From Euglena gracilis (lineage: Eukaryota): a DNA stretch of 64,000 nucleotides. Location of the stretch: positions 45,487,847 to 45,551,846 of the forward strand of contig CP154954.1 in the NCBI GenBank assembly GCA_039621445.1. Reading direction: 5' to 3'. The notes below the pieces were generated by a model. The model made no database searches. It was not told the origin of the DNA and worked only from the letters and a program-made list of their open reading frames with translations. Both the position numbers and the translations under genes were made by a program. Below, piece by piece: positions 1-58,132 of this stretch. How positions within the stretch are numbered: the stretch's first letter is position 1; each line of letters starts with the position of its first letter.

Positions 1-551
1 AGGTCAGCTGCGGTGGGAGAGCCATGTGATTTGGCTGGGCAATGTCTTGTGTCTCTCCGGGGTGATGCTAGATGTTGCGGGTCCTGTCCAACTTTGGTGC
101 AGCATCACCGCGGTCATTGCACAAAAAAAAACAGAAAAGAATGAAACATTTCAACAAGACTCGCGGAACCTAGCCACTCTTTCAAGGTAAATTTTGTCAC
201 TTCGTTGAAAACTTTTTAAATGGAAATCCTTCACGATGACAATAGAAGGACCCAAAAATCGGACGGAATTGTCAGAATTACAGCCGGCGCCCCTATTTTT
301 TGAAACGCTTTGACACATTCTTGAAACGTTTTGACAGAGCTTTTGAAATATTTTGACGGTATTCAGGAAACGTTTTGACAAGGTTTTTGGACGTTGCTGT
401 GCGCAAATTTTGAAATACTTTGACAAAATCTTTGAAATGTTTTGACAAAATCTTTCAAACAAATTTGACAAAATCTTTGAGACTTTTTGACAAATTTTTG
501 GTGCATTTCCATGTCATTATGTCATTGTATGGCCAATGTCTGTCCCGCAGG

Positions 552-3500
552 ATGCCTCGTCTGAGGTCCACCAATGTCCGCCGACCAAGGATTGCACCTG
601 CAGTGTTGCGTTCTTTCAAATTGTTTGTCATTGAGCATCCTGATCATACATCTCTTTAACCACCTTGAGAAGAGTTGCTTTTGGAATGTGCATGTGGCGG
701 GGATTCAAAGGAAGGTCCTGGAGGGGGATCTCATAAGGTCCTGGGACTTTCTCCTGGTTTGTAAAGGAGGGGGGGGATGGGAAGTTCCTGGCCTCCTTGG
801 GGGGAGGGCTTATGTTTGCCCTCCTGAAAAAGGCAGAAAAGGGTTCCAGGGAAAAAGGGCAGAATGTGCTCAAGCATGATTGCATTTCTTGTGTGCAACC
901 CATAGGCTGTTAATGAGAAGTCTGATCTCGATGCCAACCTGCGTGAGCTCATGTCACGATCCTCAATCAATGTTGGTTGAATTGTATTTTGTTGTACCTT
1001 CATTCAAAAGATAGATTTTTTGATCCGGTGATGGCTGGGGGTAAAAAGTGTTCAACTTTTTTCTGAATTGCAACCTTAAAACTAACACGGCATTCACCGT
1101 CTTTTTGGAAAGCCTCAAGGATTGCGAACTTCTTTTAAACATCCGTTAAAAAAATGACTTACTTTGAGCTTTCCTTCATTTGAAACTGTTTTCCCGCTGA
1201 TGCCGTCAACCCACAAAGGCCGTTGGCAATGAAGGTGGTTGTTCTTCAAAGACACCAACAGTGTGATCAGTGTGTCGCTTGCGTGCTGAATTAATTGAAT
1301 CTGGCTTTAGTGATCACTACCATGTTGCTGAACGTCCTGGATCTAAACGTGCAAGGAATTTGCTCATGGAATCGAGAGTCAAGAAGATCTTGACGCAAGA
1401 TTGTTCTCTTTCCCTTCGAGCCGTGAAGCGCCGTCTCAGGCGACGAGCAGAGCCTTTTCTCAGTTTTTTTTTTTTCGGACAGTTTTCATTTTGATTGGGT
1501 GAGTGGGGGGTAATCACCTCGTCTGAGCTAAAATTCAAATACACAGCGTTGTAGAGTTGAATATGAATTTTTTCTGAGAAATAAAATGGAATTATTACCG
1601 AATATTCAGATTTCCTTAATTGTTTTCCGAAAAATGAAATAGAACTATTTCCAAACTTTCAGTTTTCCTTAATTAATTGGCACTCAACAGATGACAACCA
1701 ATTGTCGATGAGACTTAGAGAGGGCCTGAGGTTGTTTCCACATCCTTGCATCTGAAAGGACCATCAGGAGGACGTTGAAAAATATGGGCTGGAGCAGGAA
1801 GCGTACATCTCGTGTTCCTGATGTTCGCAACTTGCAGGCAACCCTTTTTTGGATTTCAACTTTTTTTGTTTGTTTTCTGGGAACCAAAAAACGTGCTCAA
1901 CATTTTATTAACCAGCACAAAAAGAAGGGTTGTTGTCATCAAAACCTGGTTGCTCGAAAGCAGTTTGCAATTTGCATCTCTCCACTCAACAACAACCAAT
2001 TGCTTTATTTGGATGAAACCGGATTTAACCTTTGGACGATGCCATTGTTCGGCTGGTCTCCACTAAACCAGCGTGCAAATCAGTTGGTTACTTCACAGCG
2101 GGGATGCGTTTGCATCAACTCTTCTTACTTGTAGTAAGGTCACAATTTTTGATTTGGATTTCCGGTCAGCGTTGATGCAATTCCAACGTTTCAGTTCTTG
2201 TTGTTCTTCATCGGAATGGTGTGCTGTACACAATTTACAAAAAAGCCGTCAGACTGCTTTCCACTTACAATTCACAAACCCAAAAAGTTCTGATTACACC
2301 CCCCTCCCCCGACCGAAAGTGTCAATGTTGAGGGGTCACGGGATCAGCAACAAAGGTATGTGGAAGGCAGGCAGAAATGCTCAGCGTTTCATTGAATTTC
2401 TAAACGTTGTCCTCTTTCCTTGGATTGACGTACAGCCTGTTGTACAACGGCGTCTCATTCTGGAACACAGTTGTGCCATGTCTGCTAATGGAATCATTTT
2501 CACGATGACTTTTTTTTTCATTTGGCTCGTCCCATTCGCCTACCAGATTTTATTTCAAAACAAATTTTTGTTCCAACGGTTCGTGGTAAAAACACATGCA
2601 GCATTGGGCAAGGGTCAACCACAATTGTTTTAAACGGTGAAGTGCCATCGCTCACTCAAACTGTGGCACAAGGGTGATTCTGACAATGTCCGCTTCCACA
2701 AGACTGCAGCTGTGCGTGCCCTTTTTCCACATGCTGCATTGGATTTGGCGTACCTTCCCACATACTCTCCTCATTTGGGGAACTGTTTGTTTGTTGTCAA
2801 TGGAGCCAGGGGAGGTCGGCACACCCCTCCCCCCCCACCGACCCCCTCGCCATGCCATGTCAGGCCCGCCAAAGAAAATTTTCTTGGCAAACCCTCGCGC
2901 ACCCCTCCCCCCCCCATCCGGGACCCCTCGCCACGCCAAACCCCCCCTCCCCCCCCCCTAGCCGGACCCCTCGCCACGGCGTGCCGACCCCCCTAGGGAT
3001 TGCTCCCCCTCACTTACCATGCCCCCCTCCAAAAGGTCAAAATTTTTCTTTCGGCGCTTCGCACTGAAAATTTTTAGCAGTTTTGACCAAATTTTTGCCC
3101 AAAAAATGCCCGTCAATTTGGCCCTAAAAATGGCCAACTTTGATCGCACACCTGTAGAGGAGGGGGGTGTCCCGCCCACCCCCCCCCCTGCTAGCCCACA
3201 GGGAGGACTGGATCACCCTGCCCCTCCTTTCCTGATATTGAACCCTGGCCTACACCCCTCCTAAACGTCAGTGTTCTCATTTCTTCAGCCCCGTTGGCCT
3301 CAAGGAAAACAGAGGTCGGTGCGTGTCATTTTGCTCAGTATGTGGCAAAGGAGTTTCCCACGACCAGTTGAACGCAGTTGAACAATTATTCGGCGTGTTG
3401 AAGCACCGAGTGCGCTCACATCGACCACATCCCACAAACACCGCACAACTGACCAAGGTTTTTTTGCTGTGATTTGACGTTTTGAATAAACTTAGGGATG

Positions 3501-3747
3501 ATCAACTTTTTGTTGTGATGTGTGTGTTATTGCCGGTGTGTTAATTCGTTGAGTTGCAACCTTTCCACAACTTTCATAATTAGTAGGTGGTGTTCAATGT
3601 TCAAAATAGAAAGGGAAAAAAACTGTGGCATTGATGACCCTCATCAGATTGAAGCTCGATGAGCTGGGGGCTGAGCCGCTGTGGCCGTTCTTCAACAACA
3701 CGCGTGAGTGGCTCGATAAGGCCGCCCGCATGATAAAGTTCTTGTAA
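552..3747 (+). CDS. DD34E transposase, 11 exons, 358 aa (exons 552-645, 683-714, 906-964, 1269-1444, 1734-1835, 1938-2107, 2185-2250, 2376-2462, 2682-2772, 3366-3450, 3633-3747)
   Basis: Exons sum to 1077 nt with consistent phases. The spliced protein has an HTH (SLRAVKRRLRRRFHILASERTIRRTLKNMGWSRKR), LYLDETGFNL, QRGCNVSVLVVL, LILDNVRFHK and YLPTYSPQLNAVE, with 34 residues between the second D and the E. The ATG is preceded by an AG (tcccgcagg). The first two junctions are the least certain. Confidence 0.88.
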
Positions 3748-3776
3748 GGGTTCAGTCCTGTGTGATCTGTACAGTC

Positions 3777-4216
3777 ATGGGATTGCTCAGTTGTATCGCC
3801 TGCATTTTGGTGACGGTTTTAGCTGGAAAAGATTCTTGGATGTTTGTGTGAAACAGAAAAAATTGTTGCACATATTTGCACACCACACTGTCCAGTCCTG
3901 TCATCTGTCCTCACATTTCAACTGCTGGCAATTCGTACAAAAGGCACAAATTTTACTTTGCATTATGGGTGTTCTTTTGCAAGTGTTTGGGAGAAAGCAA
4001 ATCATCACCAAAAGCATTGCGGCGTGGGACACGGAAGTCATCCCACACTTGAAACGCAGATTTGGCATGGCCATCTCTGCGTGGCTTGAAAGATACATAC
4101 CCATGTACATCCTCTGAGCTCATATTTTTATGTTCCTATGAAGCCACTGGAGATACATGGGCATGTGATTGAATCACATTGACACATGCTGCAAGTGGTT
4201 TTTCAGTTTATTTTGA
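3777..4216 (+). CDS. Putative second small ORF inside the transposon (91 aa after removing 3842-3877, 3935-3984, 4093-4170), unknown function
   Basis: AG at 3773-3774 then ATG. Three stem-forming segments in the same +4/-6 register splice to one open frame, MGLLSCIACILVTVLAGKDSW...KQIITKSIAAWDTEVIPHLKRRFGMAISAWLERNHIDTCCKWFFSLF*. Confidence 0.4.
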
Positions 4217-6420
4217 TCAATTCAACATCCCTGGAAAGGCGCTCCTGCATTTCACTTTCATCAGTTCCATCCACCATTTCACATTTTTGTTCATTGTTGC
4301 AGTCTATTTTAAGATTAACATCCTGTAGCACAATGAACGCGACTCTTCCTCCCATTCCACCAATGACAAAATCCACCCCCCCCCTCAAAAATGTGGATGC
4401 TCAAAAATCGCGCCCACAATGGATCAAAGATTGTGTCCAGAACGCTCCAAAGATTTTGTCAAAATATTTCTGGAATTGGTCAAAATCTTCCTAAAATTTT
4501 GTCAAAAAAATCCAAAGATCTTGTCAAAAAATTTCAAGAATCGAGTCAAAGTCATGTCAAAGATTTTGTCATTCTTGACTCAAGAATACGGGCGTTAGCT
4601 GTAGTCAAAAAAAAATGGCAAAATTGTGTGTACCATGCCCCCCCCCCCTCCCGAGCTATTCCCATAGGGGGGGGGGGACGGGAATAGCTGTCATTGCACT
4701 TTTCACCAAGGAATTCCCCAAAAAGTTGTCAAAAATCGACGTTTTTGGGACGTTTTCAGAAATCACTTTTTGGCAAATGTGTTTTTCGGGGGTTCGCGAC
4801 TATGAAGGACGGGGCCCAGGTGGCCAATTAGGGGGGGTAACCCCCCCCTAATTGTCCCCCCCCCTTATTGGCCAGAAGGGGGGTCCGGGCCGCCCGGGGG
4901 GTCACGTTATTGGTGTTGGTAATCGTAATCCTGAAAAAAGCCCAGGGGGGTCCCGATAAAACCCGATATATTGACCCCCCCGGTATCCTCGATAAATCCG
5001 ATAAATTCGATGTGGAGATGGGAAAAAAAAGACCCAAGTACCATGCCCCCCCCCCCCGAGCTATTCCCGTCCCTGGGACCCTTTACGGCCCAATGGGAAC
5101 AGTACGGGGGGGGACAGCTTGGGGGGGGGGCCTAGGTCCCCCTGTTGCGAGTGGGGAATTCATTAGGTTGTATCAAATGCTGCCGGTTTCATCTGACGGC
5201 TGGTGCAATGCCATCTGCCGCCTCAACGAGCAGAAGCACGGGGGAGGGGGTGTTGGCTGGGACCACCAACCGCCGCCTGAGGGACAGTGGAATTCAAGAT
5301 TGTTACCCACATGACGCAGCCATGCGCCATCTGCTATAAACTGATCACCCCTAACTTCATCTCCTCTAAAGTACAAGTCATTTATACACCCCTTTGAGCA
5401 AGGATGGACATTGATAACCGTGACCCCCCCCTATTTGTCCCCCCCCCTAATTGGCCAGAGCCCAGGTGGCCAATTAGGGGGGGGGGTCCCCATGTGTATT
5501 AACCCTAGTTGGGCGGCTCTTTGGGGTAGCAGGTACCTTGTAGGGGCCAATTTATCACGTTTCTGAACAGCCGGCTGTAGTCCTCAAAAGCCGGGGCTTA
5601 AAAGTTCACAAAGGGGGGGATTGCGAGAAAATGGTGGTCGGCCCGACCGTGGTAAGGGGTGGGGGGTTACTCATTTCAAGGGAAAATGCATTTATTCGGG
5701 TGCCTAAAATTGACCCTTTTTTGCGAACGTCCAAAAAAGTTGCCAAAAATGACCCCTTTTGGGTTGCCCGAGGGTCGGGTATGGGAATTGGCAGTGAAGC
5801 GTGTGTTGTGGGGATGGAGGGAGGCAAAAAAAGCCCTGCAGACGAATGGGTGACACTGCATAGTCTGGGGTTCGGCATGTCTGACGAGGACCCTCGGCCA
5901 CCAGGGGGGGGGGTCTCCATTTTGCCGTGCCGAGGGGGGGTCCACCGTGGCGGACAGCCTGAATTTCCCAAAGGAAAATTCATTGGTATGGTTCGGCACA
6001 TGCTGTGAGGGGGGGTCAGCTGACGGGGGGGGGGGTCCCATTTTGCCGTGCCGAGGGGGTCCGACCACCTGGGGGGGGGTTGCCAAACCTCCCATGGTGC
6101 GCTATAGAGGCAGCAATTTTTTTTCTGGAACTCCACCCACGGTCGTGGTGTGTGGCAACCGCGCCTCCCAATGATGACCCCTTGCATGCAAACAATATCC
6201 TTGTAGTTCTTTGCGACCACAAGCAAACCGTCGTCTTGGCAACCACGGTTGAACAGTCACCTTGGCTTTCCATTGCTCTCTTGGTTTTACTTTTAGAAAA
6301 CCAGCAGGAAAATGTAACCAGCCTAGGCATGTCCAGGAGGCATCAATGTAGCATTCATCCCCTCTAGATGCACTGGCGCTTTCCAAGTGATGGATTTTGT
6401 GGTGGACAGGCCTTTCTACA

Positions 6421-6536
6421 CACAAATTGTGGCTGAGTCCAGATTTCATCCTGAAAACGTGTTCAGGAGGGGGCCCCCGAAGGGGGCCCCCTGAACACGT
6501 TTTCAGGCTGAAATCTGGGCTCAGCCACAAATTTGT
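6421..6536. repeat. ~115 bp foldback hairpin / MITE (second copy ~27926-28041)
   Basis: ACAAATTGTGGCTGAGTCCAGATTTCATCCTGAAAACGTGTTCAGG is inverted at CCTGAACACGTTTTCAGGCTGAAATCTGGGCTCAGCCACAAATTTGT. Confidence 0.85.
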
Positions 6537-8605
6537 TTAAAAACGTGTTCAGAGCCCGCCAAATGCCTGCCCTGAAATTCGTGGTCATGATTCACGCAAG
6601 GGGTCAAAAACGCGAAAATGTGAAGTTCGGACCCCAAAAAACAGCGCCCTAATGGAAAACGTGCCAGACCACAAATGCCTTAATGGAAAACGTGTCATTG
6701 CCACAGATGCATTAATGGAAAACGTGCCTGACCACAGATGTCTTAATGGAAAACGTGTCATTGCCACAAATGCCCTCACTGAAAACGTGTCACCCCCCCC
6801 CCTTTTTCCGCAGCCCTCCTATTATGGCTAAACACACGGCAAACTTTGTGAATGGTCTTTTGATGCCAAGGAGCGGGGGGGGGGAAATGTGTGTCGCATT
6901 TTTTCGCATTTTTGCGTTTTTTTTTGCGCATTTTCTGGATTTTTGGGAAAATGCGCATTTTTGCGCATTTTTTCGCATTTTTTGTGCAATTTTTCGATTT
7001 TTTCGCGCATTTTTTCGATTTTTTGCGCATTTTTCGATTTTTTTCGCGCATTTTTTTGCATCTTAAGAATTTCCGGCTTTTTTTTAACATGTTGCAGTTT
7101 CATTTTGGTTTTTTTTATTTTGATTGTGTATTATCAAATTGCTCTTTGACCAATGTTGCATTGATGCTGAGTTATGTTGTTTGATTTGCGCTCTGTTCGG
7201 CTTTTTGCGCATTTTTTGCATTTTCCCACCTTTTTTTTCACTTTTTGGAGGCATTTTGTCCATATTCAAGAAAAAAGCTTTGGGTGATGAGGTGTGGGTG
7301 TTCATCTAATGATGATGAGGACACTAGGGTTTTCAGAGACCCCGCATCGAATCCTACTCCCCTGGTCACAAGTAAGAAGCACCATGGCTGACATTGTTGG
7401 TTATGGTGAACAGAGAGTGACGCCTTGCTGATGCATTTTTTTTTGGCCAAAAATGCCTTCATTTCAGCTGTTTTTGGTGATTTTGGTTTAATTTTGGGCT
7501 CATTGTTGGAAATTTTCTAAGTCCTTTTTCTCTTAGGAATGTACAAACTCAGCGCATTTTTTGCGCATTTTTTTTGCGCATTTTTTGCACATATTTGCGC
7601 ATTTTTGCGAGGGCCACCCAGCGCATCCCCCCCCCCCCCTGCAAGAAGCCGAAGGTTGACCCCCTTGCTGGCACAGGGCAACACGAAGAAAAAGTCTGGC
7701 TCCGTAGGTGCAGAGCTTGCTGCTGTTGCCAACTGTTTGGAGTTCGCCAAACTGTGTCAACATCGGCAAGCCTCTTATCCTGAGTTGGATGCTTTCTTTG
7801 TTGCCTGGACGGGATGGGAGCTGGAATCCAGCCTCCCATCAGCAGCTCATCATCAGCTACGGCGCGGAACGTTGCTCGGTGGTCAACTTGGGCAAATTTT
7901 TGCGCCCCGCCAAGTGAGGAACACTCGGTCGAAAATCAGGACCTGACTGATGTTCCGTCTGTGTTTCCCACCGCCGAGCAACGTTCCGCTCCTGCTGTCA
8001 GCAGCTCCGTAGCGCCTCCCTCCCCTGACCAACCCCCTGTGCCTCGTGCTGTGTCCCGACTGCCTATAAAACAGGAGAAATGTGGTTTTTGTGGTGTTGC
8101 CATTCCCAAAAATCCAAATTGTGTGGAGCTGAACAAAGTTGTGTGTGACGCCTGCGGTTTGGAATATCATTTTCATTGCCAAGATTTGCGGTGGCCACCA
8201 AAGCATGGCTCTTTTTTGTGTAAATCGTGTCGTGTTCCGTGATGTCCGCCACTCCGTGTCGGAGTGCTCCAAGGCAACGTCTAGCCTTCTGTTGTGTTGT
8301 AGAGTGCCCCCGACCCGCCTCACTCATTGAGGACCACCTCGGCCTCTCAACTGCTCACCGATTTTTCGTGATAGCGATTTTTGCTTCTTGCTCGGGGTTG
8401 CCACAGATGCCTTAATGGAAAACGTGCCTGACCATAAATGCCTTAATGGAAAACGTGTCATTGCCACAGATGCCTTAATGGAAAACGTGCCTGACCACAG
8501 ATGCCTTAATGGAAAACGTGTCATTGCCACAAATGCCCTCATGGAAAACGTGTTCATGACCATGAATTTCAGGGCAGGCATTTGGCGGGCTGAACACGTT
8601 TTTAA
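6537..8605. mobile_element. TTAA-bounded TIR element (Kolobok-like TTAA|RR termini) carrying a PHD-finger ORF
   Basis: TTAA-AAACGTGTTCAGAGCCCGCCAAATGCCTGCCCTGAAATTCGTGGTCATGA ... TCATGACCATGAATTTCAGGGCAGGCATTTGGCGGGCTGAACACGTTT-TTAA. There are 31-32 bp subterminal tandem repeats (TAATGGAAAACGTG core) at ~6648-6790 and ~8400-8555. Confidence 0.75.
7814..8242 (+). pseudogene. PHD zinc finger (C4HC3) ORF fragment in transposon, probably frameshifted from the upstream segment
   Basis: CGFC...VVCDACGLEYHFHC...FLCKSC at 8081-8230. The upstream frame (KSGSVGAELAAVANCLEF...HQLRR) needs a frameshift near 7862 to join it. Confidence 0.7.
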
Positions 8606-8755
8606 GGTTTGCCGTCGGTTACTTTTATGTTTCTTGGCGGGGTACCATGCCCCCTATATAAGACCCCCCCTCGGGAGCCAAAGTCCCAGGGGGGGTCTTA
8701 TTTGGGGGGGCATGGTACCCCGCCAAGAAACATAAAAGTTACCGACGGCAACCTT
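8604..8755. mobile_element. Foldback MITE (second copy ~30273-30425)
   Basis: AAGGTTTGCCGTCGGTTACTTTTATGTTTCTTGGCGGGGTACCATGCCCCC is inverted at GGGGGCATGGTACCCCGCCAAGAAACATAAAAGTTACCGACGGCAACCTT. Confidence 0.85.
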
Positions 8756-8839
8756 GAAACCTTGAACCCGGCCAAAGGGACGGCCTTCGGCCGGCCAGGG
8801 GGGGGGGTCTTATATGGGGGGGATGGTAACCAAATTGCT

Positions 8840-9370
8840 TCGATCAAACCGTGGGTCACCCCTTCTCGCTGTGACGTTGTCTCGTGGGTGTTAGATGCCT
8901 GGGAACAACTGCCCGTAAACGTGTTGGAGAAAGGCATGACGAAGCATGTCCTTGTCCCAGCAACCACAAACCCCAACCTGCCTGCACCTGACATTCCCCT
9001 GCCACCTGTTCCATCCCAAATAGATGAGGTATTGGCAACACTCTCGAACTTGGCCTTACCCCATGAGGCTGGGGAAGAAGAGCAACGCCAAGATGATGCA
9101 ATGGATATGGGTGGCCAAGATACACCAAGGGGGTCCCGGGGGACCCACTCAAAGACAGGTCTCCCAATTGGCACCACAACATGGCAGATGTAGTTGTCAT
9201 AGTGTCCACAATGGAAAGCAGTCTCCTGCACCTTCTCCTGGCGTATATTGTCTGTGAAACACCAAAATACAGAGAACATGAAGTTGGCACGGGGTATGTG
9301 TCATTGAATGCTGTGACATGTGCAATGTACCATGGAGAAAATGGCATTTTGGGCATGGGAGAAGTGCGGT
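8840..9370 (+). pseudogene. Pogo/DDE_1-type transposase C-terminal remnant followed by a decayed PHD-like segment (second copy ~30500-31030)
   Basis: TPSRCDVVSWVLDAWEQLPVNVLEKGMTK resembles the pogo-family PSRxxVxxWVxxAWxxI helix. Downstream GVYCL* and VIECCDMCNVPWRKWHFG are PHD-like. Confidence 0.55.
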
Positions 9371-10155
9371 TGACACAAGGTGTGTTTCACGGACCAACCT
9401 GTCAAACACAAGGGGGGGGGGGTAGCTTTCGTCAATGCATATCACGTCAGTATGTCAAAGCACACCCAACTCCTAGAAAGCCCTCTCCCCCGTAAGCAGT
9501 TAATTGGTGCCTGTTTGTCCGACAGCATTAATGGCAATAGAAAGATCGGTTGGTTGGTACAAGAATTATGCAGCAGTTTGCTTTCTCGTTGTAGAATGCT
9601 CTTTAAAGCAAATGGATGTGCGGGTGGGTGGGTTTATCGGGAAGCAGCTGTGGTGAATGCTTTGGGCCGTCTCTTTCTCTTTCTTAGCCCATCGACAGGG
9701 ATGGCCTTTTTGGGGGTTTTTTTCTTCTTCAAAAAAAAAAAAACAACAAGAAGTGCTTTTGTTGGTTTCAAAAAAACCACTGTCCATTTTTTTTTGGATT
9801 TGGAATTCGCGGCGGGGCATATGGTTGTTTTTTTTTTTTTTTTTTTTTTATTCGCTTCTTTCTTTTTTTTTTTTTTTTTTTTTTTTTTTCCATCTGGTTG
9901 TCTCCTAATGAGAGTTGAGGATCCTGGGAGACGCTGGTTCTGTCCTGAACCCGAACGCCGGTTTAATGCCAAAAAAAATCATGTGTGCTGAAAGGGGCCT
10001 GGCCTGAGCGAGCCGAAACACAGGCGTTCAACCATCTTGCAGAACAATTTTTATGAAGTCCTACAATTCAAGGATCACCTCCATTGCATAGACGTTGCTT
10101 GACCACCTGAAAATTCAAGCCTCGTATACTTCTTTCTGGCTTGCCAGGTATCAGA

Positions 10156-10228: not shown

Positions 10229-10282
10229 TTTTGGTGGGACTTTTATTGGTAAAAATAACTTGTGGAAAAGGTGAAAAGGGTT

Positions 10283-10354
10283 CGTACATGGTGGGAGTCG
10301 AACCCACGACCTCGTACTTGTGAAACGAGCGCTTTACCGCTAAGCTACATGTGT
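10283..10354 (-). tRNA. tRNA-like gene, Val(CAC)-like, probably pseudogene or SINE head
   Basis: Reverse complement ACACATGTAGCTTAGCGGTAAAGCGCTCGTTTCACAAGTACGAGGTCGTGGGTTCGACTCCCACCATGTAC. D- and T-arms are intact, the acceptor stem pairs 5/7, and the anticodon stem pairs poorly in canonical register. Confidence 0.6.
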
Positions 10355-10960
10355 GTTTACGTTTGTAGAACATTTTTCATTATGGCCTCCGTCACCAACA
10401 TTGGGATGTGGGTCTTGGGAACTGACGTGATGAGATGTTAATCTTGTGTTTTTGTGGACCTTTTTTTGTGGTCCGAATAATCCCTCCCCCCCGAACAATT
10501 CGAGACCGCAAACGATTAGTCGATTGATCGATGAATCGAATCCACCCTGATCCACACAGACGGTGACCCATTCTCCTTCTAAACACTTGGCCACCCTTGA
10601 ACGCTCCGATTGGAACACTTCATCTAGCAGTGTGGTGGATATAGTGTGCCTGCAAGGAACTTTCGTACTGGTCTCAGAGTGCTCTTCAACCACATGAAGG
10701 GAAGGTTGTTGGCAAATATAAAACGGGCGATCTGCACGTTGAAGAGCGCACTGTGCGCCTGTCCATGGAGCTTCTGGGAACCGCCACTGACGACAGCTTC
10801 ATTTTCTTCAACTCCAAACAACCATCAGCATGTGTTTTGGCTCGCACAGTGACAAGAGACACTTCGGCTCCACAACCTTTGCACATCTGTACATAACACA
10901 TCTTGCCGGCCTTGGAAATCTTTGGTCCGAAGCACCTCCACACAGCCCCCCACGGGTTTT
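10340..10960 (-). pseudogene. hAT transposase remnant (BED finger plus start of catalytic domain), frameshifted
   Basis: WRCF...CKGC...KTHADGC is a BED-like finger. In another frame: KVPCRHTISTTLLDEVFQSERSRVAKCLEGEWVTVCVD. Confidence 0.7.
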
Positions 10961-11896: not shown

Positions 11897-14800
11897 ATGG
11901 ACCAACTCATTCCAATTGTGAACAAGCTTCAAGCGGCCTTTGGAGATGTGGGCATGGTTGCAAAGATTGACTTGCCCCAAATTGCAGTTGTTGGGGCACA
12001 GAGTTCAGGCAAGAGCTCCGTCTTAGAAAGCCTGGTTGGGAGAGATTTCCTCCCCCGAGGTTCAGGTTTGCCCTCTTCTCCCATCGAGCGAACAAAAGCA
12101 AAAAGACGTTGAATGTGGCTTGTGAATGGCTTATCTTAACAAAGAAAAGGCTCTATATCAAAAACTGCATCTTAAACTCAAATGGAGGTTTGGCATACCA
12201 TGACCCCCCCCTCTAAATGACCCCCCTGAATGACCTCATCTGGGGTGCAGCTGAGCTTTTGGGATGCCGGTCCATGGAAATATCTTTTGGAAGAGTTACT
12301 CTCCCCCCCGCAAATGACCCCTTCCCCTAAATGATCCCTTGGGGGGTCCTGAAGTAATATCAATAGTGTCATTTAGAGGGGGGTCATGGTACCCCCCCCC
12401 CCCTAGGTTGGACATTCTCGGCACGGCAAAGGGGTACCCCCCCCCTTGGTTGGCTGACCCCACTTCACCGGTGAAATTTGCTAGCCATTGGGTTGTGCCT
12501 ATTTAACCTTTCGGGCGGCTGAACGATTCACCTCGTTTCAAAGTCTTTGCACTTCCCTCTGTGGCCTTAGGGCACCAGGCCACATCCTCATTATCTGTTA
12601 CGGGACTTCTAAAAAGAAAAACGGCACGTTTGAACAAGTCAACTCCGCGTAAAGTGCGAGATTAAATTGGCTGCCTAATCTTTCGGCCTGGTGCTTCGCA
12701 CCAGGCCAATAATTGGTCACCCCGACCGCGCCACTGTTCAGGCGGGGGGTTCCCCCCCATCCTGGATTGGAGGAGAGGGTTGATCCCCCCACCTGCTGGA
12801 TGCAACAGGCAGGTGGGGAGTGGGGGGGGTCAGGTTTTGGTTAGTACTCGAGCACTCTGAAAATGGCCTTCTCGAAGGAAATCCGCCTGGGTTGGTTGGG
12901 GCTGGGACCCAAAATTGACCCTCCGGGGCGGAGCCTGCTCTGTCCAGGCACCCCATAGCACAACGCACCTCCCCCCGGCGCAGGGGTTTTTGTAGTCTTG
13001 GACCCCCGGGGGGGGGTAGGGTGGGTGGGTCTGGCCGGTCTGGTGGGTGGGTCTGGCCCCCGGAGGGGGATATACTTTTTGGCGCCGAAAATGTTTGAAA
13101 AAGGTGCTATTTTTGTTAGCATTTTCGCGATTTTTGGCCATTTTCGGGGGGGAAGTGAGCGGGTCCCCGGGACCCCCCGGCTTTTAAGAAGAACCCCTGC
13201 CCCGTCCCTGGGTGGCAAACAACCGCCTGCCCCCCGGGATCGCCCTCGGCCTGTTCTTCGCCGGGTCGTTCTGCATGGCGGTGAACGACCAGGCTGGGCG
13301 GAAGAGGGCAAGGGGAGGCCGTTGCCAGCGGCGACAGGGATGGCGTCCTGCGTGTCCAGCCCACAGCACGTCGCCTGTGAGAAAGGGGGACCGGCGTACA
13401 AAATTTTGCTTGCGGGTAGGGTTTCTTGTAAACAGAACAAAAAAAACTCAACATTTACAAAAAATGAATAATTATTTATCACATATATTGAAGCCATTTT
13501 CAGTCCACGATGTACAGTGCCGTGGAAGACTGTGTTCAGCCCACATGCGAAGCGTTAATAGACGTGGTGAGTGGGTTTTTTGATGCTATGCACGTGAACA
13601 AAACCTTTTTTTCCCGCAGAAAGCCGTTTTCAGCACACGTTTTTTTTTGGCAGTACAAGTGAACAAACACGATTCTGGGGAAAAACCGTGACAATTTAAC
13701 CCCCTCCCCAATAAGTGCACGGGTGCGCGAATTTTTTGGACATAGTTTTGGACTCCAAGGCATGCGCACTTATTTGGGCATTGCACATTTATTAGGACAA
13801 AGCACAACATACTTGATTTTCCACCACTCTTTTTCAGTTTTCCCCCTTCTTGTGATGTCAAGCAATGAGTCAATTAATTACGTGTCAAATGTGGGCTTGG
13901 ACGATAGAATTCTTTGGTTTGAGAAGGACAAATGAATATCGTGAAATAATAACACAGAAAAAATACCGTGAAATAACGGTTTTTTTGGGGGGGTGACGAA
14001 CTTTTTTTGTTTTTTTTGGCCGATTTTGGGATTCACCAAATCATAAAGGGACACGAAATGACGGGTTTACCGACCTTTATCGAGGACATCGGGGTGTCAA
14101 TCCATCCAAATTTATCAGGACCCCCCCCTGAACCCAATATCAACATCCATCCTTGTCGCGGCAGGCTTCCGACTTTTCCGCTTTCAGCCCTTTTTTGTGT
14201 CAAAAAATCAATTTTCCAAGATTTCTCAAAAATGGTGGGGAGTCAAAGGAAATGTCCGGAGACCAAATTGAATCCCCTGAAATGTCCTATCTGGCAGTAT
14301 TTTGATTTCCCTGCAACTCCACGCCTAGCCCGAGTTACGGCCATTTTTCAGCCAATTTCACCATTTTGTGCAGTTTTGGCCTGTTTTGATTTGGCCGTTT
14401 TTAGCCATTTTTCTTAGGTGAAAAAAAACTTGAAAAAAATCGAAAAAATTTTGCCCAAAACGATGTTTTTTTGGCCTCCCGACCCCGGGAAAACTTTTTT
14501 TGGGCCGAAAATGAGCGTTTTTCGGCTCATGCATTTCGGCCGGGCTGGGCCAGGCTGGGCCGCCAGACCACCAGCCAGGCCGCTGGGCTGGGCCGGGCCG
14601 CCGGCTGGGCCGGGCCGCCAGGCTGCCAGCTGGACCTGCCGGGCCGGGCCGCCGGGCCGTTGACCGCCTCAAACATCTGCCACACACATGAAATATCTGC
14701 TGCAGCGCACCATCACACATGCAAAGAGATCAGCACTACACAAAGCTTTAATGGTAGAGTGGTGGTGCCAGTGGTGCCTGTTCTGGAAAATTCGACACCA

Positions 14801-17800
14801 ATGTCTGTTGGAAATTCAACGTCTCAGATGCATTGGCGTTCCTCAATTGAACGCCCTTTTTCAAGAGCCTTCGACAGGTGGCCTCAAAATTCAGTGACAA
14901 CGACCATGTGCTTTGACAGAATTTCAAAATGTCTGGTCGTTGCTGGTCAGTTCAGTTGCCATGAAGCCCATTGATCAAACGTTTTTTCAAGGGCTTTCAA
15001 CATATGCCCAGAGAACCTAACCACGGAAGACAGAACTCTTATCCCGGATAGATCACCGAACATTTGGAGGTTAGGCAGGGTGCTTTTTTTATTATGAGAT
15101 GTTTTGATTATTATATTGTTCAATATAGTTTTGATATTTGCCCATCTTCCCATCTGTGTGTCTAACTTTCCATCCATCCATCTATCTATGCATCAGGCCT
15201 CTATGTGAGTGGGTGCTATGGGCAGGCAGGGGTGGTGGGGCATTTTCGACCCCTTCCCCCGGGTGGTCGGGTTTGTGGGTGGGTAGTGCCATAGCCTCAA
15301 AATGCTCAAAGTCTACTGCCTGATCTCTTTTACCCCAAAGGGAATCATTTCAGCAGGGCTTTTTTGTGTGGAAAATTATGAGTTTCCACAAATGACTCAT
15401 AAATTTCCCACTCTGGACTGGGGTTTTAAGGCATTTGGGTGCCCCTATTCCTTCCCCCAAGCTGTTCCCATGTGCACTGCCAAGCTCCAATGAGCTGTTT
15501 CCCTCCACCCCCTCCCCGACCAAAGGCCCAAATCTGACCAATCTTGGGGACAGTTGGGGGGAGCAGGGCTTGATATAAGGACTGTATCCTGGCAGTGGTG
15601 GCCACTTTCGGCCTCTCCTGGCCAACCCCCCGGGGGGTTCTGGAGCCAAAAACAAGCCAGTCACTGCGAAAAAACCAGTCAGTCACCCCCCCCCCCTAGG
15701 GGGCAGGGTCAGACATGCCTTAAGCAATGGTATGGTCCGGACCCCTCCAAAAGTTCAGGAGGCCCCATCCGGCTGGCGCTGAAGGTGCCGGAATTTTTTT
15801 GGGGTGGCCAAATCCATTGATTTTCAGCCATTTTCGGCCGAGTGGCCAGGGTGACCCCCTGGGGGGGTGGTTGGAACTGGTGACTAGTTTTTGAAAAGTG
15901 ACCAACTGGGTTTTGAAAATGGCAAGCGGCCCCCTGGGGGGGGACCAGACCCCTCCCCCTCCCCCAAGGGGGATGGGTTTCATGGGGACTTGGAAAACTC
16001 TGGGGAATTGAAGGAAAGTTTCTTACCCGCCCCCCCCCCCTTGTCCACCGACCACCCCTATATACCGACCACCCCCCGGTCGGGGGTTGCAGGTTGAGGG
16101 GGGTGTACGACCACCCTCCCTGGTCGGGGGTTGCAGGTGACCACCAAAATTTTTCCTCTCATGTGCTTATTGACCAGCTTTTTTCCCGTGTTTCCTGTCC
16201 ATTGAGTGTTCGTCATGTTCCCTCCGGGGAGTCCTGTTTTGTTTGAGTGTAGTGATGGCATTGCTCCCTCACCTAATGGGGAGAAATATTACCGTTATGA
16301 AATTGCACCTTTTTTGGCTTTTGGTTTTGTTTTGGCCCCTAGTGGTACGACCACCCCCCGGTCGGGGGTTGCAGGTTGTGGGGGGTGTACGACCACCCCT
16401 GGTCGGGGGTTGCAGGAACCCGGTCGGTGGACAAGGGGGGGGGGGCAGGTAGCTGCCTTGCTCATTTTTCCGCTCAGGGATTGTAACTCGAAGGCCCCTC
16501 ATCCTCCAACTACTCACGATGCCCAAGGACAGCCCAGACCCCCGGCCATGGGGAGAGTTTTACCACAAACCTGGGACACGCTTCCATGACTTCATTGAAA
16601 TCCGTGCAGAAATTGTCCGAGCAACAGAGCAAGAGGCAGGTGGCGGAAAGGCAATATCGAAGAAGCCCATCCAGCTGAAGGTTCATTCACCTGATGTACT
16701 CAATCTCACCCTTGTGGACCTCCCCGGCATCACAAAAGGTATCCAACATCCTCAAGAACCACTTTTTTTAAATTTATCTTTTGTAAACAAAAAACTCATT
16801 AAGGGCTCGGGGAACTTTTTTTTCGCCTGAAGTCTAAGCTGCGATGCTTGGGTGATGCAACGCCAACACTTGGAAAGGAGGGAAACAAGAACAATGCAAC
16901 ACTTTATTTTGCGCAAAAAGTTTTTTTATTAAAAAATCAAGAAAAGAATGCTAGCTATGTCAACAATTGAAATGAAACATGGTCCTTGAAGATGGGCAGC
17001 TGATGGAAGGGATGGGTGGGTACCCGCCCAGTTGTCGCCCCCAGGGCGACTTTTGGGGGGGCGAGACGTAAAGAGGGGAGGGTCAAGGGAGTTCAACGAG
17101 TCACTTCTTGGGATGCAAATTTGTATTTTGGGGGGCACAATGAGGAATGTTGTTCTTTAAAAGCCATAAAAACATTGCACATGGGTCCAATAATTTGGTG
17201 ACAAATTTTAAGTTTTGTGGGGACATATTTTTGGCATATCCTGGACGACATTTTGGAAACCATATATATATATATATATATGTATTTATGTATGTATGTA
17301 TGCATGTATGTATGTATGTATGTATGTATGTATGTATGTATGTATGTATGTATGTATGTATGTATGTATGTATGTATGTATGTATGTATGCATGCATGCA
17401 TGCATGCATGCATGCATGCATGCATGCATGCATGCATGCATGCATGCATGTATGTATGTATGTATGTATGTATGTATGTATGTATGTATGTATGTATGTA
17501 TGTATGTATGTATGTATGTATGTATGTATGTATGTATGTATGTATGTATGTATGTATGTATGTATGTATGCATGCATGCATGCATGCATGCATGCATGCA
17601 TGCATGCATGCATGCATGCATGCATGCATGCATGTATGTATGTATGTATGTATGTATGTATGTATGTATGTATGTATGTATGTATGTATGTATGTATGTA
17701 TGTATGTATGTATGTATGTATGTATGTATGTATGTATGTATGTATGTATGTATGTATGTATGTATGTATGTATGTATGTATGTATGTATGTATGTATGTA

Positions 17801-20800
17801 TGTATGTATGTATGTATGTATTGGTATAAATGTTTTTACGCCCTGTTTATGGGTTATGGCCCACAATTCACCTAGAAAGCCCTAGCGCCTTCCCTGTTTT
17901 TCGTTGATGCGCTTCATGCCAAGGTTTCGGGAACTGCTGTTCACGCTCTGTTTCGTGAACGTGAAAGAGGGAGAACAAGAAGGCAGAGTGGTCAGCACGT
18001 CTAACAATATGTATTATAATAAACAGGAGCAAAATCAACAAGTTTAAAAACAGCGATGGACAACAACCATACTGTGCAATGGCATGTGTAATGTCACTCA
18101 GGCGAAATGTGACCTGTCAAAATGAAGGGCCTCTGTGTTCCCCTGCGACCCCCCTCTGACTCTTGGCGCCTTACAAACATCCCCATTTTGAGTGGAGATG
18201 GGTTTGCAAATCCTATGCAAAACCAATAACCCTAACCCTAATCCTAACCCACTGCTACGAGTTGTACCATGTCTTCCTCTCCGGCGAAATGAAACATACG
18301 CAACTTTGTGTTTGGGCCATCTTGTTCAGTGCAAGGTTTTGGCCAGACCCCCTTCTTCATCACTGGCCCCCAGAAGACAAGGGGTCCGTGCTTCCGGGTT
18401 TCCAAAAAACATTTATTGTTGACAGAAAATGCACATGCATCGCACATCTTCCCATTCTCTGCCAGTGGCCGTTGGTGACCAGCCTGCAGATGTGGAGCTC
18501 CAAATCCGCGAGCTGGTGCTGGACTACATCAGCCAGAAGAACTGCATCATCCTGGCAGTGACCGCCGCCAACCAGGACCTGGCGAACTCTGACGCAATCA
18601 AGATCGCCCGCGAGGTGGACCCCAACGGAGATCGGACCGTAGGGGTCCTGACAAAGCTGGACCTGATGGACAAGGTTGGTGATGTGCCATTCTCTACATT
18701 TGCGAGCTGTGGATGAGGGTTGACCCCCGCCACGTCCCTAATTGTTTACCCCCCAAATAGCATTCCCCTGCCCCTGGGACCCAATTTCGGCCGCCCAAAC
18801 AATATCCCCCCCATTTTCTCACTGACTGCCACAGAATAAAATCAGTTTCCTGGGTGCTGGAACCATATTTTTGTGCAAATGTAACATGGTTTCTCCAATA
18901 TTTGAAAATGGAAGGGAAAATGTCAAATTCACATTTCTGAGACAAAAAATTGCATGTACCTTGGATTTTGATGGTGCTCAACATAGATACACTGCATTTC
19001 GCGGTCAAAAAATTCACCCAAAGAAGCAGGAAAAATTTGTCAAATAATGTCCCCCCTGAATATTATTCCTCCCCTGGGGGTGGGCAGACCAATAATGTTC
19101 CTGGGGGGGGTTGGCGACATTATTTGGGGGGTTCACCCCCACTTCATTAGACGCCCCAGAAAGGAGAAAATGACTACAACTCCCACTTGCGCGTAATAGA
19201 AGCCCCGCCCTTTTGAGAATTTCACCAAAGTGCACAATAGTAGCCTCATCGGCCTTCCATTTGGGGATTTATTTTAGGATCCTGTCACTGTTTGTATTTC
19301 ACAGGGCACTGATGCAATGGATATCTTGATGGGGAAAGTGGTGCCACTGAAGCGCGGCTACATTGGGGTGGTGAACCGCGGCCAACAGGACATCAACACA
19401 AACAAGGACATCAAGAGTGCCCTGAAAGCCGAAGAGCAGTTCATCCAGAGCCACCCTAAGTACAGCCGGTATGGCAGTTTCCATAACATTGTGCAGAAGC
19501 GCTCAATGAACCAATCAATCAGCACTCCAGCAATTATTATTAAATTTGCAACATCTGAAAGATCTCCAATTGAAAATGCGCATTTGCGAAATCTGCGCAT
19601 TTCCCTGGTGATTGCATGCCCAAGCAATATTGCAGGTGAGAAGCACACAAAAGATCTCTCCAGATGATTTTCGCCCATCTTCTTATTCATTCAACAACCG
19701 AGAGCCAACCCAGGGGGGGGGGCAATGCTGCAACGTTTCTGTTTCCCCCAATCTACCAATTTGGCATTTATTCAAGAAAGAAGAAATACAGAGAAGAAGA
19801 AGAAGAAGAAGACGAAGAAGAAGAAGAAAGAAGCACCATTTTGTTGGTTGTCATGGCAGGTCTACGCAGGCTTCTTTCGAAAGAAGATTGCACCCTGTCA
19901 ACAGCTATTTGCAGTCGTCGCTCAAGCCAGAGGGCACTCCATTCCCTCAGGGGAGGACCAGAGGACCCCCCTCGGCAAGTTAATTATTTTGCAGCCGCCC
20001 GAACAAGGCGCTAAAAATGAACCTCCTGGGGGGGTCCGCCAGCCAGCAGCTTGTTTCCAGCCAGCAGCATTTTTCCAGTCCTGGACCCCGCATCGACGAG
20101 TTTTATTTATTTTGCAGCCCCCTGAAGAGCGGCAGGATGGTAACGGATTTCTGGTTTTCAGGGGTGCAAAAATGGGCAAAAATTGGTCGGAATTGGGCTG
20201 GCTAGGGATAAAGTTGGGGTCAAAAATCGACTTTTTGCACAATTGGCTGTTTTTGGGCTTTTTTTTTGCAGTGCCAATTGCCCAGTTCCAGTCCCATGAG
20301 TCAGCTGGTAGCCTTTTTCCAGCCAGCCAAAATTTTTCCAGTTTCTGAACTGGGCCCCCGGGATGGGCAGTGTTGTTGTCCATTCCCCTGGGGTCGGTTT
20401 TGTGTCCTGGCCGCCTCAGGCTTTCCCTTGAAATGCCACGTTCAGGCCCTGGGACTGGAGTGCAGGCACCCTACAGCCCCTCTCCCCGGGTTTAACCCCC
20501 TTTCCTTTCAATTAGGTTTTGCCTTGGGGGGGAACAGAAACCGCAATGTAATTTTACCCGGGGTTAAGGACAAAGTCTACACAAGGGGAACAGCTTGTAC
20601 TGCCATTTGGGGCCCTCTTCCACCCCTCCAAAACTATCGATATCTGGATAGTTTTTTGACATCCGCATGTTTTTCACACCCGTAGGCACTAATCCAGCCG
20701 GCACATCAAAATAGCTATCCCGGTGAACACAATGGGAACCCCCAATCGGTTTCCAGTTTTGGGGCCAAATCACGGTTTCCCATGCACACGGCGCATGGAG

Positions 20801-22183
20801 GTTGCTCTTCGCGTGCCACGGCAGCATCGCCAACCGGATGGGGACCCCCTATTTGGGGAAGCTGCTCAACGCCATCCTGCTGCAGCACATCCGGGAGACG
20901 CTGCCGGAGCTGAAGGGGAAGATTCATGACCTGAGCCAGTGGCCTCCTGGAATCCCACAGTGCCGTGCCCCTCCCTTTGGACCAGTCCATTTTTTTCCTT
21001 CATCTGAAGCACTGAAGCATTTGTGGGAAAGCGATAGGACGAACGGGGCTGTCGAGCACAGCAACCACCAGATGTGATTGGATGATCCACAGTGAGAGAA
21101 TATTTTTTTCCATGAGCTGGTGCATTTGCTTGTAATTGTCAGAAATGGAATAAGGCCGCCAAGAAGGAACATTTTCATCACAAAATATCAACTTTTTTGC
21201 CTCAATGGTCCCTCCTACAATGGTGGAGTGGTTCAATTTGTTTGATCAAGTTCACGTTGTCAGTAGATATTAGATATTGCAAAAGAAATACATTATTTTT
21301 TTTACTCCTTTTGTATTTTGTTTTTGACAGATGGCTGTCACTTGGTTAGGAATTAGTAACGCAAGGTTGACCCAGATCAGGGCGTCGCTTAAGCCAAAGT
21401 GACCTCATCTCTCCCCAGACCCCCTCCCCCCCATCGACGAGTTTTTGACTATTCTACACCCTCCCAAAGGGAAGCTGGATGATAATGGATTTGGCTTTTG
21501 GGGGTGCAAAAACGGGCCAAAAATGAGCAAAAAATGGGTCGGATTTTGGCAGCAGGACAAATTCTGGGCCAAAGAATCATTTTTTTTTCACATTTGGACG
21601 TTTTTGGACATTTTTGCCATTTTTTATTTTTTTTGGCACCCAGTTCAACCCCGGGTCGGGTCCAGTTCCCACTCTTTGGGGGGGGGGGTGCTCAGCCAGC
21701 AGCCTTTTTCCAGCCAACCCAAGTTTTCTGGCCTTTGAGCTGCACCCCCCCCCAGGGGGTCACTAAGCCACACCATGACCCAGACCGAGCGATTGAATGA
21801 AGGTCCACCAAACCGAACATGCATTGGTTTTTTTCAGAGTGGCTGACTGCTTTTTGGCTCCACATCCAGAAAGGTTTTGGCTCAGAGATTTTTTGAGGTT
21901 GTCCAAAGAATGATCCATAATGCCCATTGGCCGGAGAAGTCATTTTTTTGAAATTTTTTTTTGGCCAAAGTCCATTAATTTTGAGCCATTGAGCCCATTC
22001 AGCCAAAGTTGCCAGAGGGGCTGGAAGTGGATGTCTCTTTTTCGACAAGTTGCTGATTGGTTTTTGAAAGTGATGGGCAACCGCCTGCCGTAATCAATGG
22101 TATGACGGACACTGCAGCCATCGCCCAGACAAACACTGTGCTGCGCCAGCTTGGAGATGACCAGACAATTATGTCAGCCGGAG
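11897..22183 (+). CDS. Dynamin-related GTPase (DRP1/Vps1-like), 5' part only: exons 11897-12065, 16478-16738, 18466-18674, 19305-19468, 20825-20933, 22120-22183 (~325 aa)
   Basis: [19 protein letters not shown] (G1), [10 protein letters not shown] (G2), LVDLPGIT (G3), TKLD (G4), [27 protein letters not shown]. Introns 1-4 are GT-AG with matching phases; intron 5 is non-canonical. No rest of the stalk or GED was found. Confidence 0.92.
12196..12391. mobile_element. TA-flanked MITE (TACCATG...CATGGTA family)
   Basis: TACCATGACCCCCCCCTCTAAATGAC ... GTCATTTAGAGGGGGGTCATGGTA. Related TACCATGCCCCC ends occur at ~3016, 4631, 5039, 8643 and 55486. Confidence 0.8.
13690..13900. repeat. Interspersed repeat, homologous to ~23285-23470
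   Basis: Shared AATAAGTGYACGGGTGCGCG...TTTTCCACCACTCTTT...TGTGATGT.AAGCAATGAGTCAA blocks. Confidence 0.75.
14240..14660. repeat. Dispersed relative of the terminal tandem-array family
   Basis: GCCTAGCCCGAGTTACGGCC and TTTGGCCTCCCGACCCCGGGAAAA..GCCGAAAATGAGCGTTTTT motifs are shared with 58-64 kb. Confidence 0.75.
17278..17820. repeat. Compound (TATG)n/(CATG)n microsatellite in dynamin intron 2
   Basis: Three TATG blocks alternate with two CATG blocks. Confidence 0.98.
19790..19832. repeat. (GAA)n microsatellite
   Basis: Direct reading. Confidence 0.85.
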
Positions 22184-57800: not shown

Positions 57801-58132
57801 CCGGATATGTCCCACGGGGTGGTTGTTGCAGGCGCTTTTGGCCCCGGCAGGAACGTGGAGGGTCGAAATCGGTCCAGAATGTGGCCTAACTTCTCCCTAA
57901 ATTCCTAAAAAATTGCAACCTCCAGAAATTCGGTAAGAACCTTAACCCTATCCCGAACAATAACCCCAACTTCCCCAAAAGTGGGACCTGGGCCACCATA
58001 CAACCCCCCCCCTGCCTACAACTATAGGCCCCCCCCCCGGGGGCCAATACCCTCACCCCCCCTATTTGGCTTATGGCCGGGCCCCTTCAGACCCCCAATT
58101 AGCCAATTGGGGGGGGGGGACAATTAAGGGGG

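Follow-up and report, generated by a model that had tools for sequence, protein, structure and literature searches.

Nonconventional introns with complementary ends in a Tc1/IS630-type transposase gene of Euglena gracilis

In a 64,000-nucleotide window of the Euglena gracilis genome, the whole stretch of DNA that we analyzed, the transposase gene of a Tc1/IS630-type DNA transposon is interrupted by nine introns whose two ends are complementary to each other in one register. The pairing is beyond chance, and the junction pattern that goes with it is real, statistically solid and already described in print since 2013–2016. We consider the nine to be ordinary euglenid nonconventional introns that accumulated in a multicopy transposase and are removed by the nonconventional pathway of the host, a reading to which we assign a probability of about 0.8. 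The geometry of the stems, their covariation, the junction letters and the open reading frame were obtained in this analysis, and the spacer lengths, the exon purine and the need for pairing were established by others in E. gracilis (PMC12501133). Published papers are cited by their PMC accessions and are represented here by excerpts of their text.

The transposon and its transposase gene

A TA target-site duplication, terminal inverted repeats and a DDE_3-type catalytic domain place the element (Table 1) among the Tc1/mariner/IS630 transposons. The inverted repeats are imperfect and begin with CAGC, subterminal repeat arrays lie at ~297–499 and ~4415–4571, and the empty site was present as the joint 278->4602 in run X7. 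Removal of nine introns from 552–3747 leaves a frame open over 338 codons, and the spliced product scored 310.9 bits against a profile built from 33 homologs of 240–420 aa, taken from the 60 found by an HMMER search; identity to homolog P0001 was 40% over 302 aa. Residues 38–337 of the model align with DDE_3 homologs, and the D-D-34-E spacing was counted from that alignment, while the DDE_3 and HTH_33 matches of single exons were under the Pfam cutoff. A word-index search with exon 5 gave no relatives among 4 candidates, and a metagenome scan for the transposase returned one distant locus, matching over only 25–29 residues. The gene thus resembles the DD34E transposases of Pfam DDE_3 in its TA duplication, terminal inverted repeats, helix-turn-helix region and D-D-34-E arrangement, and dozens of these are 30–40% identical to it; it differs from them in carrying nine nonconventional introns and, in the model, zero GT-AG introns. 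The AG preceding the start codon is probably the spliced-leader acceptor, and the published spliced leader has G as its last letter (PMC12501133, in part).

Table 1. Transposon features, numbered from the first letter of the window. Introns are given with junction letters, the triplets at the two stem arms and the number of pairs out of ten.
Feature	Positions	Strand	Basis or description
Tc1/IS630-type DNA transposon	281..4601	+	Empty-site joint 278->4602 (run X7); end alignment; inverted repeats
Left TA target-site duplication	279..280	.	Sequence; joint 278->4602
Right TA target-site duplication	4602..4603	.	Sequence; joint 278->4602
Probable spliced-leader acceptor AG, just 5' of the start codon	549..550	+	X1 contig aligned from 550
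Transposase gene, 338 aa, DD34E	552..3747	+	Open frame; profile of homologs
Transposase exons	552-641, 930-964, 1269-1444, 1734-1835, 1938-2107, 2185-2250, 2376-2462, 2682-2772, 3366-3450, 3633-3747	+	
Intron 1 (revised)	642..929	+	T|G..C|G, CAT/CTG, 8/10 pairs; opens the whole frame
Intron 2	965..1268	+	C|A..C|A, CAA/GTG, 9/10 pairs
Intron 3	1445..1733	+	C|G..T|G, CAG/CTG (fits published code), 7/10 pairs
Intron 4	1836..1937	+	C|A..C|A, CAA/TTG, 9/10 pairs
Intron 5	2108..2184	+	C|G..C|A, TGC/GCA (TG/CA stem), 9/10 pairs
Intron 6	2251..2375	+	C|A..A|A, CTG/CAG (fits published code), 9/10 pairs
Intron 7	2463..2681	+	G|G..T|G, CAC/GTG, 8/10 pairs
Intron 8	2773..3365	+	C|A..C|A, TGG/CCA (TG/CA stem), 8/10 pairs
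Intron 9	3451..3632	+	T|G..T|G, CAA/GTG, 8/10 pairs

A preliminary description of this DNA had listed nine junction pairs and triplets for introns of 37–593 nt but had given no coordinates, and the mapping of its letters to positions is ours. Eight of the nine map to the open transposase frame. The first, C|A..T|G at 646, runs into stops, at codon 97 as a 37-nt intron (646–682) and at codon 36 as 646–932, and a 37-nt intron at 965–1001 likewise brings an early stop. With intron 1 revised to 642–929, the lengths are 77–593 nt, and only the upper bound of the original range stands. The revised junction yields the motif HPDA as in homolog P0002 (HPEA in P0021), yet intron 1 has the least certain boundary of the set because the profile score does not discriminate at its junction (rank 101 of 116). 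Two other placements, 648–923 and 645–926, keep the frame open but fit the homologs or the depth more poorly; the depth comparison is a weak test, with 6.07 reported and predictions of 6.15 and 6.08, respectively, against 6.04 for 642–929, or 6.07 with 15 extra nucleotides. For introns 5–8 the profile ranked the chosen junction first among 114–124 alternative proteins each (intron 5 best of 114, intron 6 of 119 and intron 8 of 115), and for introns 2, 3, 4 and 9 the chosen junction was within 0.4–2.1 bits of the best score. Intron 4 is 102 nt long, in frame and free of stops; an end at 1940 was rejected, as the depth of run X8 fits a read start at 1937, not at 1940.

Most contigs aligned to the gene were 90–99% alike to the window, and the summed X7 depth was ~80–300 over most of the gene and ~21–25 for two window-identical pieces. 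This suggests the existence of several sister copies of the transposon, the X7 depth itself giving no copy number. The transposon ends (281–520 and 4250–4601) reached DNA depths of 900–6,900, far above the interior, and a deletion joint 564->2748 had a depth of 254; many nonautonomous derivatives are therefore likely. Exon 2 seems ~5 residues short in comparison with homologs, within the first helix-turn-helix, and depth arithmetic, a weak guide, fits 15 extra nucleotides in an expressed sister copy; an in-frame deletion near 952 is therefore possible in the window copy. Intron 8 contains a very high-copy nested repeat (2789–3280, X7 depth 6,000–98,000) with inverted arms at 2809–2832 and 3159–3182.

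Elsewhere in the window, an element of roughly 5 kb that contains long hairpins and 63-nt repeats is present twice, at 4850–9900 and 26350–31480, in near-identical form, and 58100–64000 is a tandem array of units of roughly 1.7 kb and 1.0 kb with internal inverted repeats. Exons of a Rubisco-LSMT-like SET-domain gene (PF09273, E 1e-10) lie on the minus strand at 31620–33741. ARAGORN called a tRNA-Cys with the unusual anticodon ACA on the minus strand at 10282–10355; this is likely to be a pseudogene or a repeat of tRNA origin. A degenerate 18-nt tandem repeat at 45689–47003 is open in several frames, and its 338-aa frame gave no Pfam match.

Pairing of the intron ends and junction letters

In the register +n/-(n+2) with n=4 to 13, the nine introns form 75 of 90 possible Watson–Crick pairs (74 of 90 with intron 1 placed much as in the preliminary description and 67 of 80 without it), in comparison with 18–34 of 90 in ten other registers. 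Dinucleotide shuffles gave 23±4 pairs with a maximum of 41, and 0/2000 reached the observed count. As the boundaries had partly been picked with pairing in mind, we also computed a selection-aware null in which every shuffled intron was scored at whichever of 57 in-frame boundary pairs suited it best; the mean rose to 52.4 and the maximum to 61, and again 0/2000 reached the observed value. When a 5' end was set against the 3' end of another intron, the pairing fraction dropped from 0.83 to 0.34, and among the 362,880 permutations of 5' and 3' ends only one, the true assignment, reached the observed pairing. The stems therefore covary with their own partners and do not share one motif. The proposal of hairpin-ended nonconventional introns in a fixed register, with pairing better than in shuffled sequence, is thus borne out.

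The pairs +4/-6 and +5/-7 are formed in all nine introns by three different dinucleotides, and +10 and +11 are likewise paired in 9/9, with mixed identities; the pair +6/-8 is formed in six and mismatched in introns 1, 2 and 9. The nine introns have 27 positions to which their junctions can slide without altering the mRNA, and the nine in register have 7–9/10 pairs while the other 18 have only 0–6. The earlier account had named a slide to GT/GC-AG or to R|R..Y|R as contrary evidence: the former occurs at 0/27 positions, and the latter form is seen in intron 7 only. Little is gained from folding the introns over their full length (z -0.9 to -2.3 for introns 4, 5 and 6), and the candidate 646–682 folds with z +1.0.

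At the four junction positions, Y, R, Y and R are found in 8, 9, 8 and 9 of the nine introns. The full Y|R..Y|R is present in seven, intron 6 being Y|R..R|R, and a purine opens the following exon in every case. The preliminary description had taken R|R..Y|R for the usual form in Euglena and an upstream pyrimidine for a specialty of this lineage or element. The pyrimidine is indeed there in 8/9, but pyrimidine|purine at both junctions is itself the published consensus for euglenid nonconventional introns (PMC3935182, PMC4770533 and PMC11282704, in the excerpts), with the letters in 49, 51, 49 and 55 of 55 introns in PMC4770533. Nor are the junctions free of a sequence signal, as had been claimed: C stands at +4 in seven introns, and CA/TG at +4,+5/-7,-6, described as most conserved in the available text of PMC3935182, is kept in six (P=3e-6 against composition; 5/8 without intron 1). 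The statement that pairing geometry alone defines the site was accordingly too strong. In introns 5 and 8 the pair +4/-6 is T-A and the pair +5/-7 is G-C, 8–9/10 pairs being formed, and introns 4, 5, 7 and 8 deviate from CAG/CTG on both arms with pairing kept.

The set agrees with the model of Milanowski et al. (PMC3935182 and PMC4770533, as excerpted) in Y|R...Y|R, in the +n/-(n+2) stem from +4/-6 with CA/TG as its commonest base, in the mutual dissimilarity of the introns, in short direct repeats that allow junctions to slide and in the occasional GT 5' end, at times seen among euglenid nonconventional introns and present here in intron 5. It differs in that two stems begin with TG/CA, that +6/-8, always paired in their 55 introns, is unpaired in 3/9 and that CAG/CTG is found in 1/9 against just 33/55 in their housekeeping genes, where compensatory changes are described (P=0.004 for this small, nonindependent sample). 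Against the E. gracilis figure for strict CAG-CTG, 19,403 of 62,894 nonslidable nonconventional introns (PMC12501133), the 1/9 of this element is unremarkable (P=0.18); PMC11170887 gives CCAGG/CCTG for the species, in the part available.

Nomura et al. 2025 formulated the noncanonical splicing code 5'-N3CDG-/-CH'GN5-6|R, and their excerpted text reports for E. gracilis a strict 3-nt spacer, a 5-nt spacer that also works as 6, a preference for a purine at the start of the exon, no constraint on the letter that ends the upstream exon and a need for pairing past the triplet; of two compensated swaps, CTG/CAG kept splicing and CCC/GGG did not (PMC12501133). The transposase introns share the 3-nt and 5-nt spacers, the exon-start purine and the pairing past the triplet. 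Their triplets fit the code only in introns 3 and 6: of the seven outside the class, intron 1 is nnn-CTG and six belong to the large unclassified class (187,325 of 649,158 E. agilis introns in PMC12501133). Two of nine is below expectation from the 61.2% of E. agilis nonconventional introns that CDG/CH'G covers (P=0.02, with nine introns of one element as a small, nonindependent sample).

Our host-gene control was a single gene with five closed introns, the dynamin-related gene at 11897–22183 that neighbors the transposon. It has six exons, four GT-AG introns and one definable nonconventional intron (20934–22119, G|A..C|A) with CAG/CTG in the same register. A tblastn search found no further dynamin exons within the window, and the first ATG exon closely follows a repeat. 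The best hit to the dynamin reached 73%, none being identical; the CAG/CTG intron and the probable leader acceptor would be in keeping with a euglenid host.

RNA from sister copies

A search of sequence runs listed no match recorded as RNA. Four of the 24 runs listed were used: X1 and X4, contig sets guessed to be RNA; X7, a large unlabelled set; and X8, a raw RNA run of which about 5% was used and 27 reads aligned. There were no intron joints among the 15 of 34 joints listed, and RNA support for the introns was calculated from binned depths and from the ends of aligned pieces. As 20/27 X8 reads and 31/34 X1 contigs were <99% alike to the window, they come from sister copies.

The RNA of these copies is consistent with splicing at introns 7 and 9, with reads that skip intron 6 and with the acceptors of introns 2 and 4. 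At introns 6 and 7, four X8 bins summing to 300 letters fit two 150-nt reads leaving at 2462, both skipping intron 7 and one also intron 6; they fix the donor of intron 7 and not the acceptor of intron 6. The alignment of one X1 contig (contig 6) begins at 3632 and leaves 77 nt of the contig unplaced, and the join 3449|3632 at intron 9 agrees with the bin depths, which are 0.18 in X1 and 0.03 in X8. For intron 4, an X8 depth of 0.2 fits one read starting at the acceptor, and another X1 contig (contig 4) aligned from 1267, the left slide limit of intron 2. The depth at 657–820 is wholly accounted for by one unspliced contig, and no spliced contig therefore has an exon at 683; the donor region of intron 1 has indirect support from sister-copy reads. 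Among the matches listed, five contigs, possibly of RNA, are unspliced across the boundaries of introns 1, 3, 5, 7 and 8 and represent pre-mRNA or DNA. No spliced RNA for introns 3, 5 and 8 was seen in the runs aligned; one such contig extends 18 nt beyond the donor of intron 3 and one beyond that of intron 5.

Origin of the introns and the role of the stem

As the preliminary description had stated, the nine introns share no further similarity: the best match between them had E 0.008, the matches were of 9–28 nt and nothing was significant. The absence of conservation between different introns is also described in PMC4770533, in the excerpt. An 8-bp duplication split 3+5 at the junctions was matched at 30/72 positions (P=0.09, not significant; 6/8 in intron 1 and 5/8 in intron 2) and at 17/54 without the junction bases (P=0.39). 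The interiors of introns 1, 3 and 9 have about the depth of the element's own DNA and are therefore not high-copy families at 88% identity. The marks of introners or young MITE-derived introns, a target-site duplication at the junctions and a high-copy family of the intron itself, were not seen in these tests. An independent origin of each intron is unproven, as old introns too would be dissimilar and the duplication test was not significant. The likeliest origin, following a published hypothesis, is old and separate insertions of small inverted-repeat elements, which this set neither shows nor excludes.

In the mechanism that we propose, the two intron ends would pair from +4/-6 outward to about +14/-16, and the cuts would be measured from the base of the stem, with three unpaired nucleotides on the 5' side and five on the 3' side and with a starting purine favored in the next exon. 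CA/TG would be the preferred stem base and other bases would be allowed, stems other than CAG being tolerated, it seems, because the remainder of the stem is long. The introns of the window copy itself would be expected to splice.

A conventional identity of some junctions, as GT/GC-AG introns at nearby in-frame sites, is very improbable. Seven of the nine (introns 2–8) do have such alternatives within 12 nt, and two of these score only slightly lower against the profile, by 1.6 bits for intron 2 and by 2.2 bits for the GC-AG form of intron 6 at 2245–2366, with which the RNA is also compatible; the other five are at least 7 bits lower, however, and every alternative alters the protein, none being a slide with the same mRNA. 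One RNA piece begins at 1267, as the nonconventional acceptor of intron 2 would predict and one at 1271 would not, and the four GT-AG introns of the dynamin gene have 1–2/10 pairs against 7–9/10 in the transposase. Decay of the window copy would explain the departures from CAG/CTG differently, the ancestral stems having been nearer to CAG/CTG and later mutations leaving some introns to splice poorly now. The mismatches at +6/-8 in three introns, the short exon 2 with its weak depth match and the prevalence of RNA from other copies, together with the unspliced contigs, would all agree with this. We nevertheless regard it as rather doubtful: the frame is open throughout, DD34E is intact and four introns deviate on both arms with their pairing retained, unlike random decay.

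A rival to our preferred reading is the earlier proposal in corrected form, in which structure comes first. The machinery would read stem geometry and the exon purine, and CAG/CTG would be mostly a founder fingerprint, replaceable by compensatory change in long stems such as those of introns 5 and 8; we consider this less likely than not. It agrees with the invariable pairing at the stem base by three dinucleotides and at +10 and +11, and with the top profile ranks of introns 5 and 8 despite their T-A and G-C base. The question of signal or fingerprint was posed in exactly these terms in PMC4770533, and a compensated T-A at +4/-6 is not among the variants of Nomura et al. in the excerpts of PMC12501133. 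On the other hand, CA is retained in six introns, more often than composition predicts, the compensated CCC/GGG variant failed in E. gracilis (PMC12501133) and RNA spliced across introns 5 or 8 was not seen in the runs aligned. A search of the literature, covering few subscription papers, found nothing on TG/CA stems, compensatory tests or nonconventional introns in Euglena transposases. The change from CA/TG to TG/CA could have taken two compensatory transitions, each through a G-U pair.

The description of the junctions adds nothing new in itself. Nonconventional introns are reported to leave as circular RNA and later than conventional introns (PMC11282704, in part), and the value of the present set is as test material for the question of signal or fingerprint, raised in 2016 (PMC4770533) and answered only partly in 2025. 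Four short natural introns (77–219 nt or trimmable) combine perfect geometry with triplets outside the code and would suit the existing knock-in reporter; in two of them the +4/-6 pair is T-A. It is possible, though we would not count on it, that nonconventional splicing accepts stems starting with T-A and G-C, as in introns 5 and 8, when the stem is long. If it does, the CDG/CH'G code would be a special case of a rule of geometry plus purine, much of the large unclassified intron class would be explained, and transposon-borne introns might lean further from CDG/CH'G than those of host genes.
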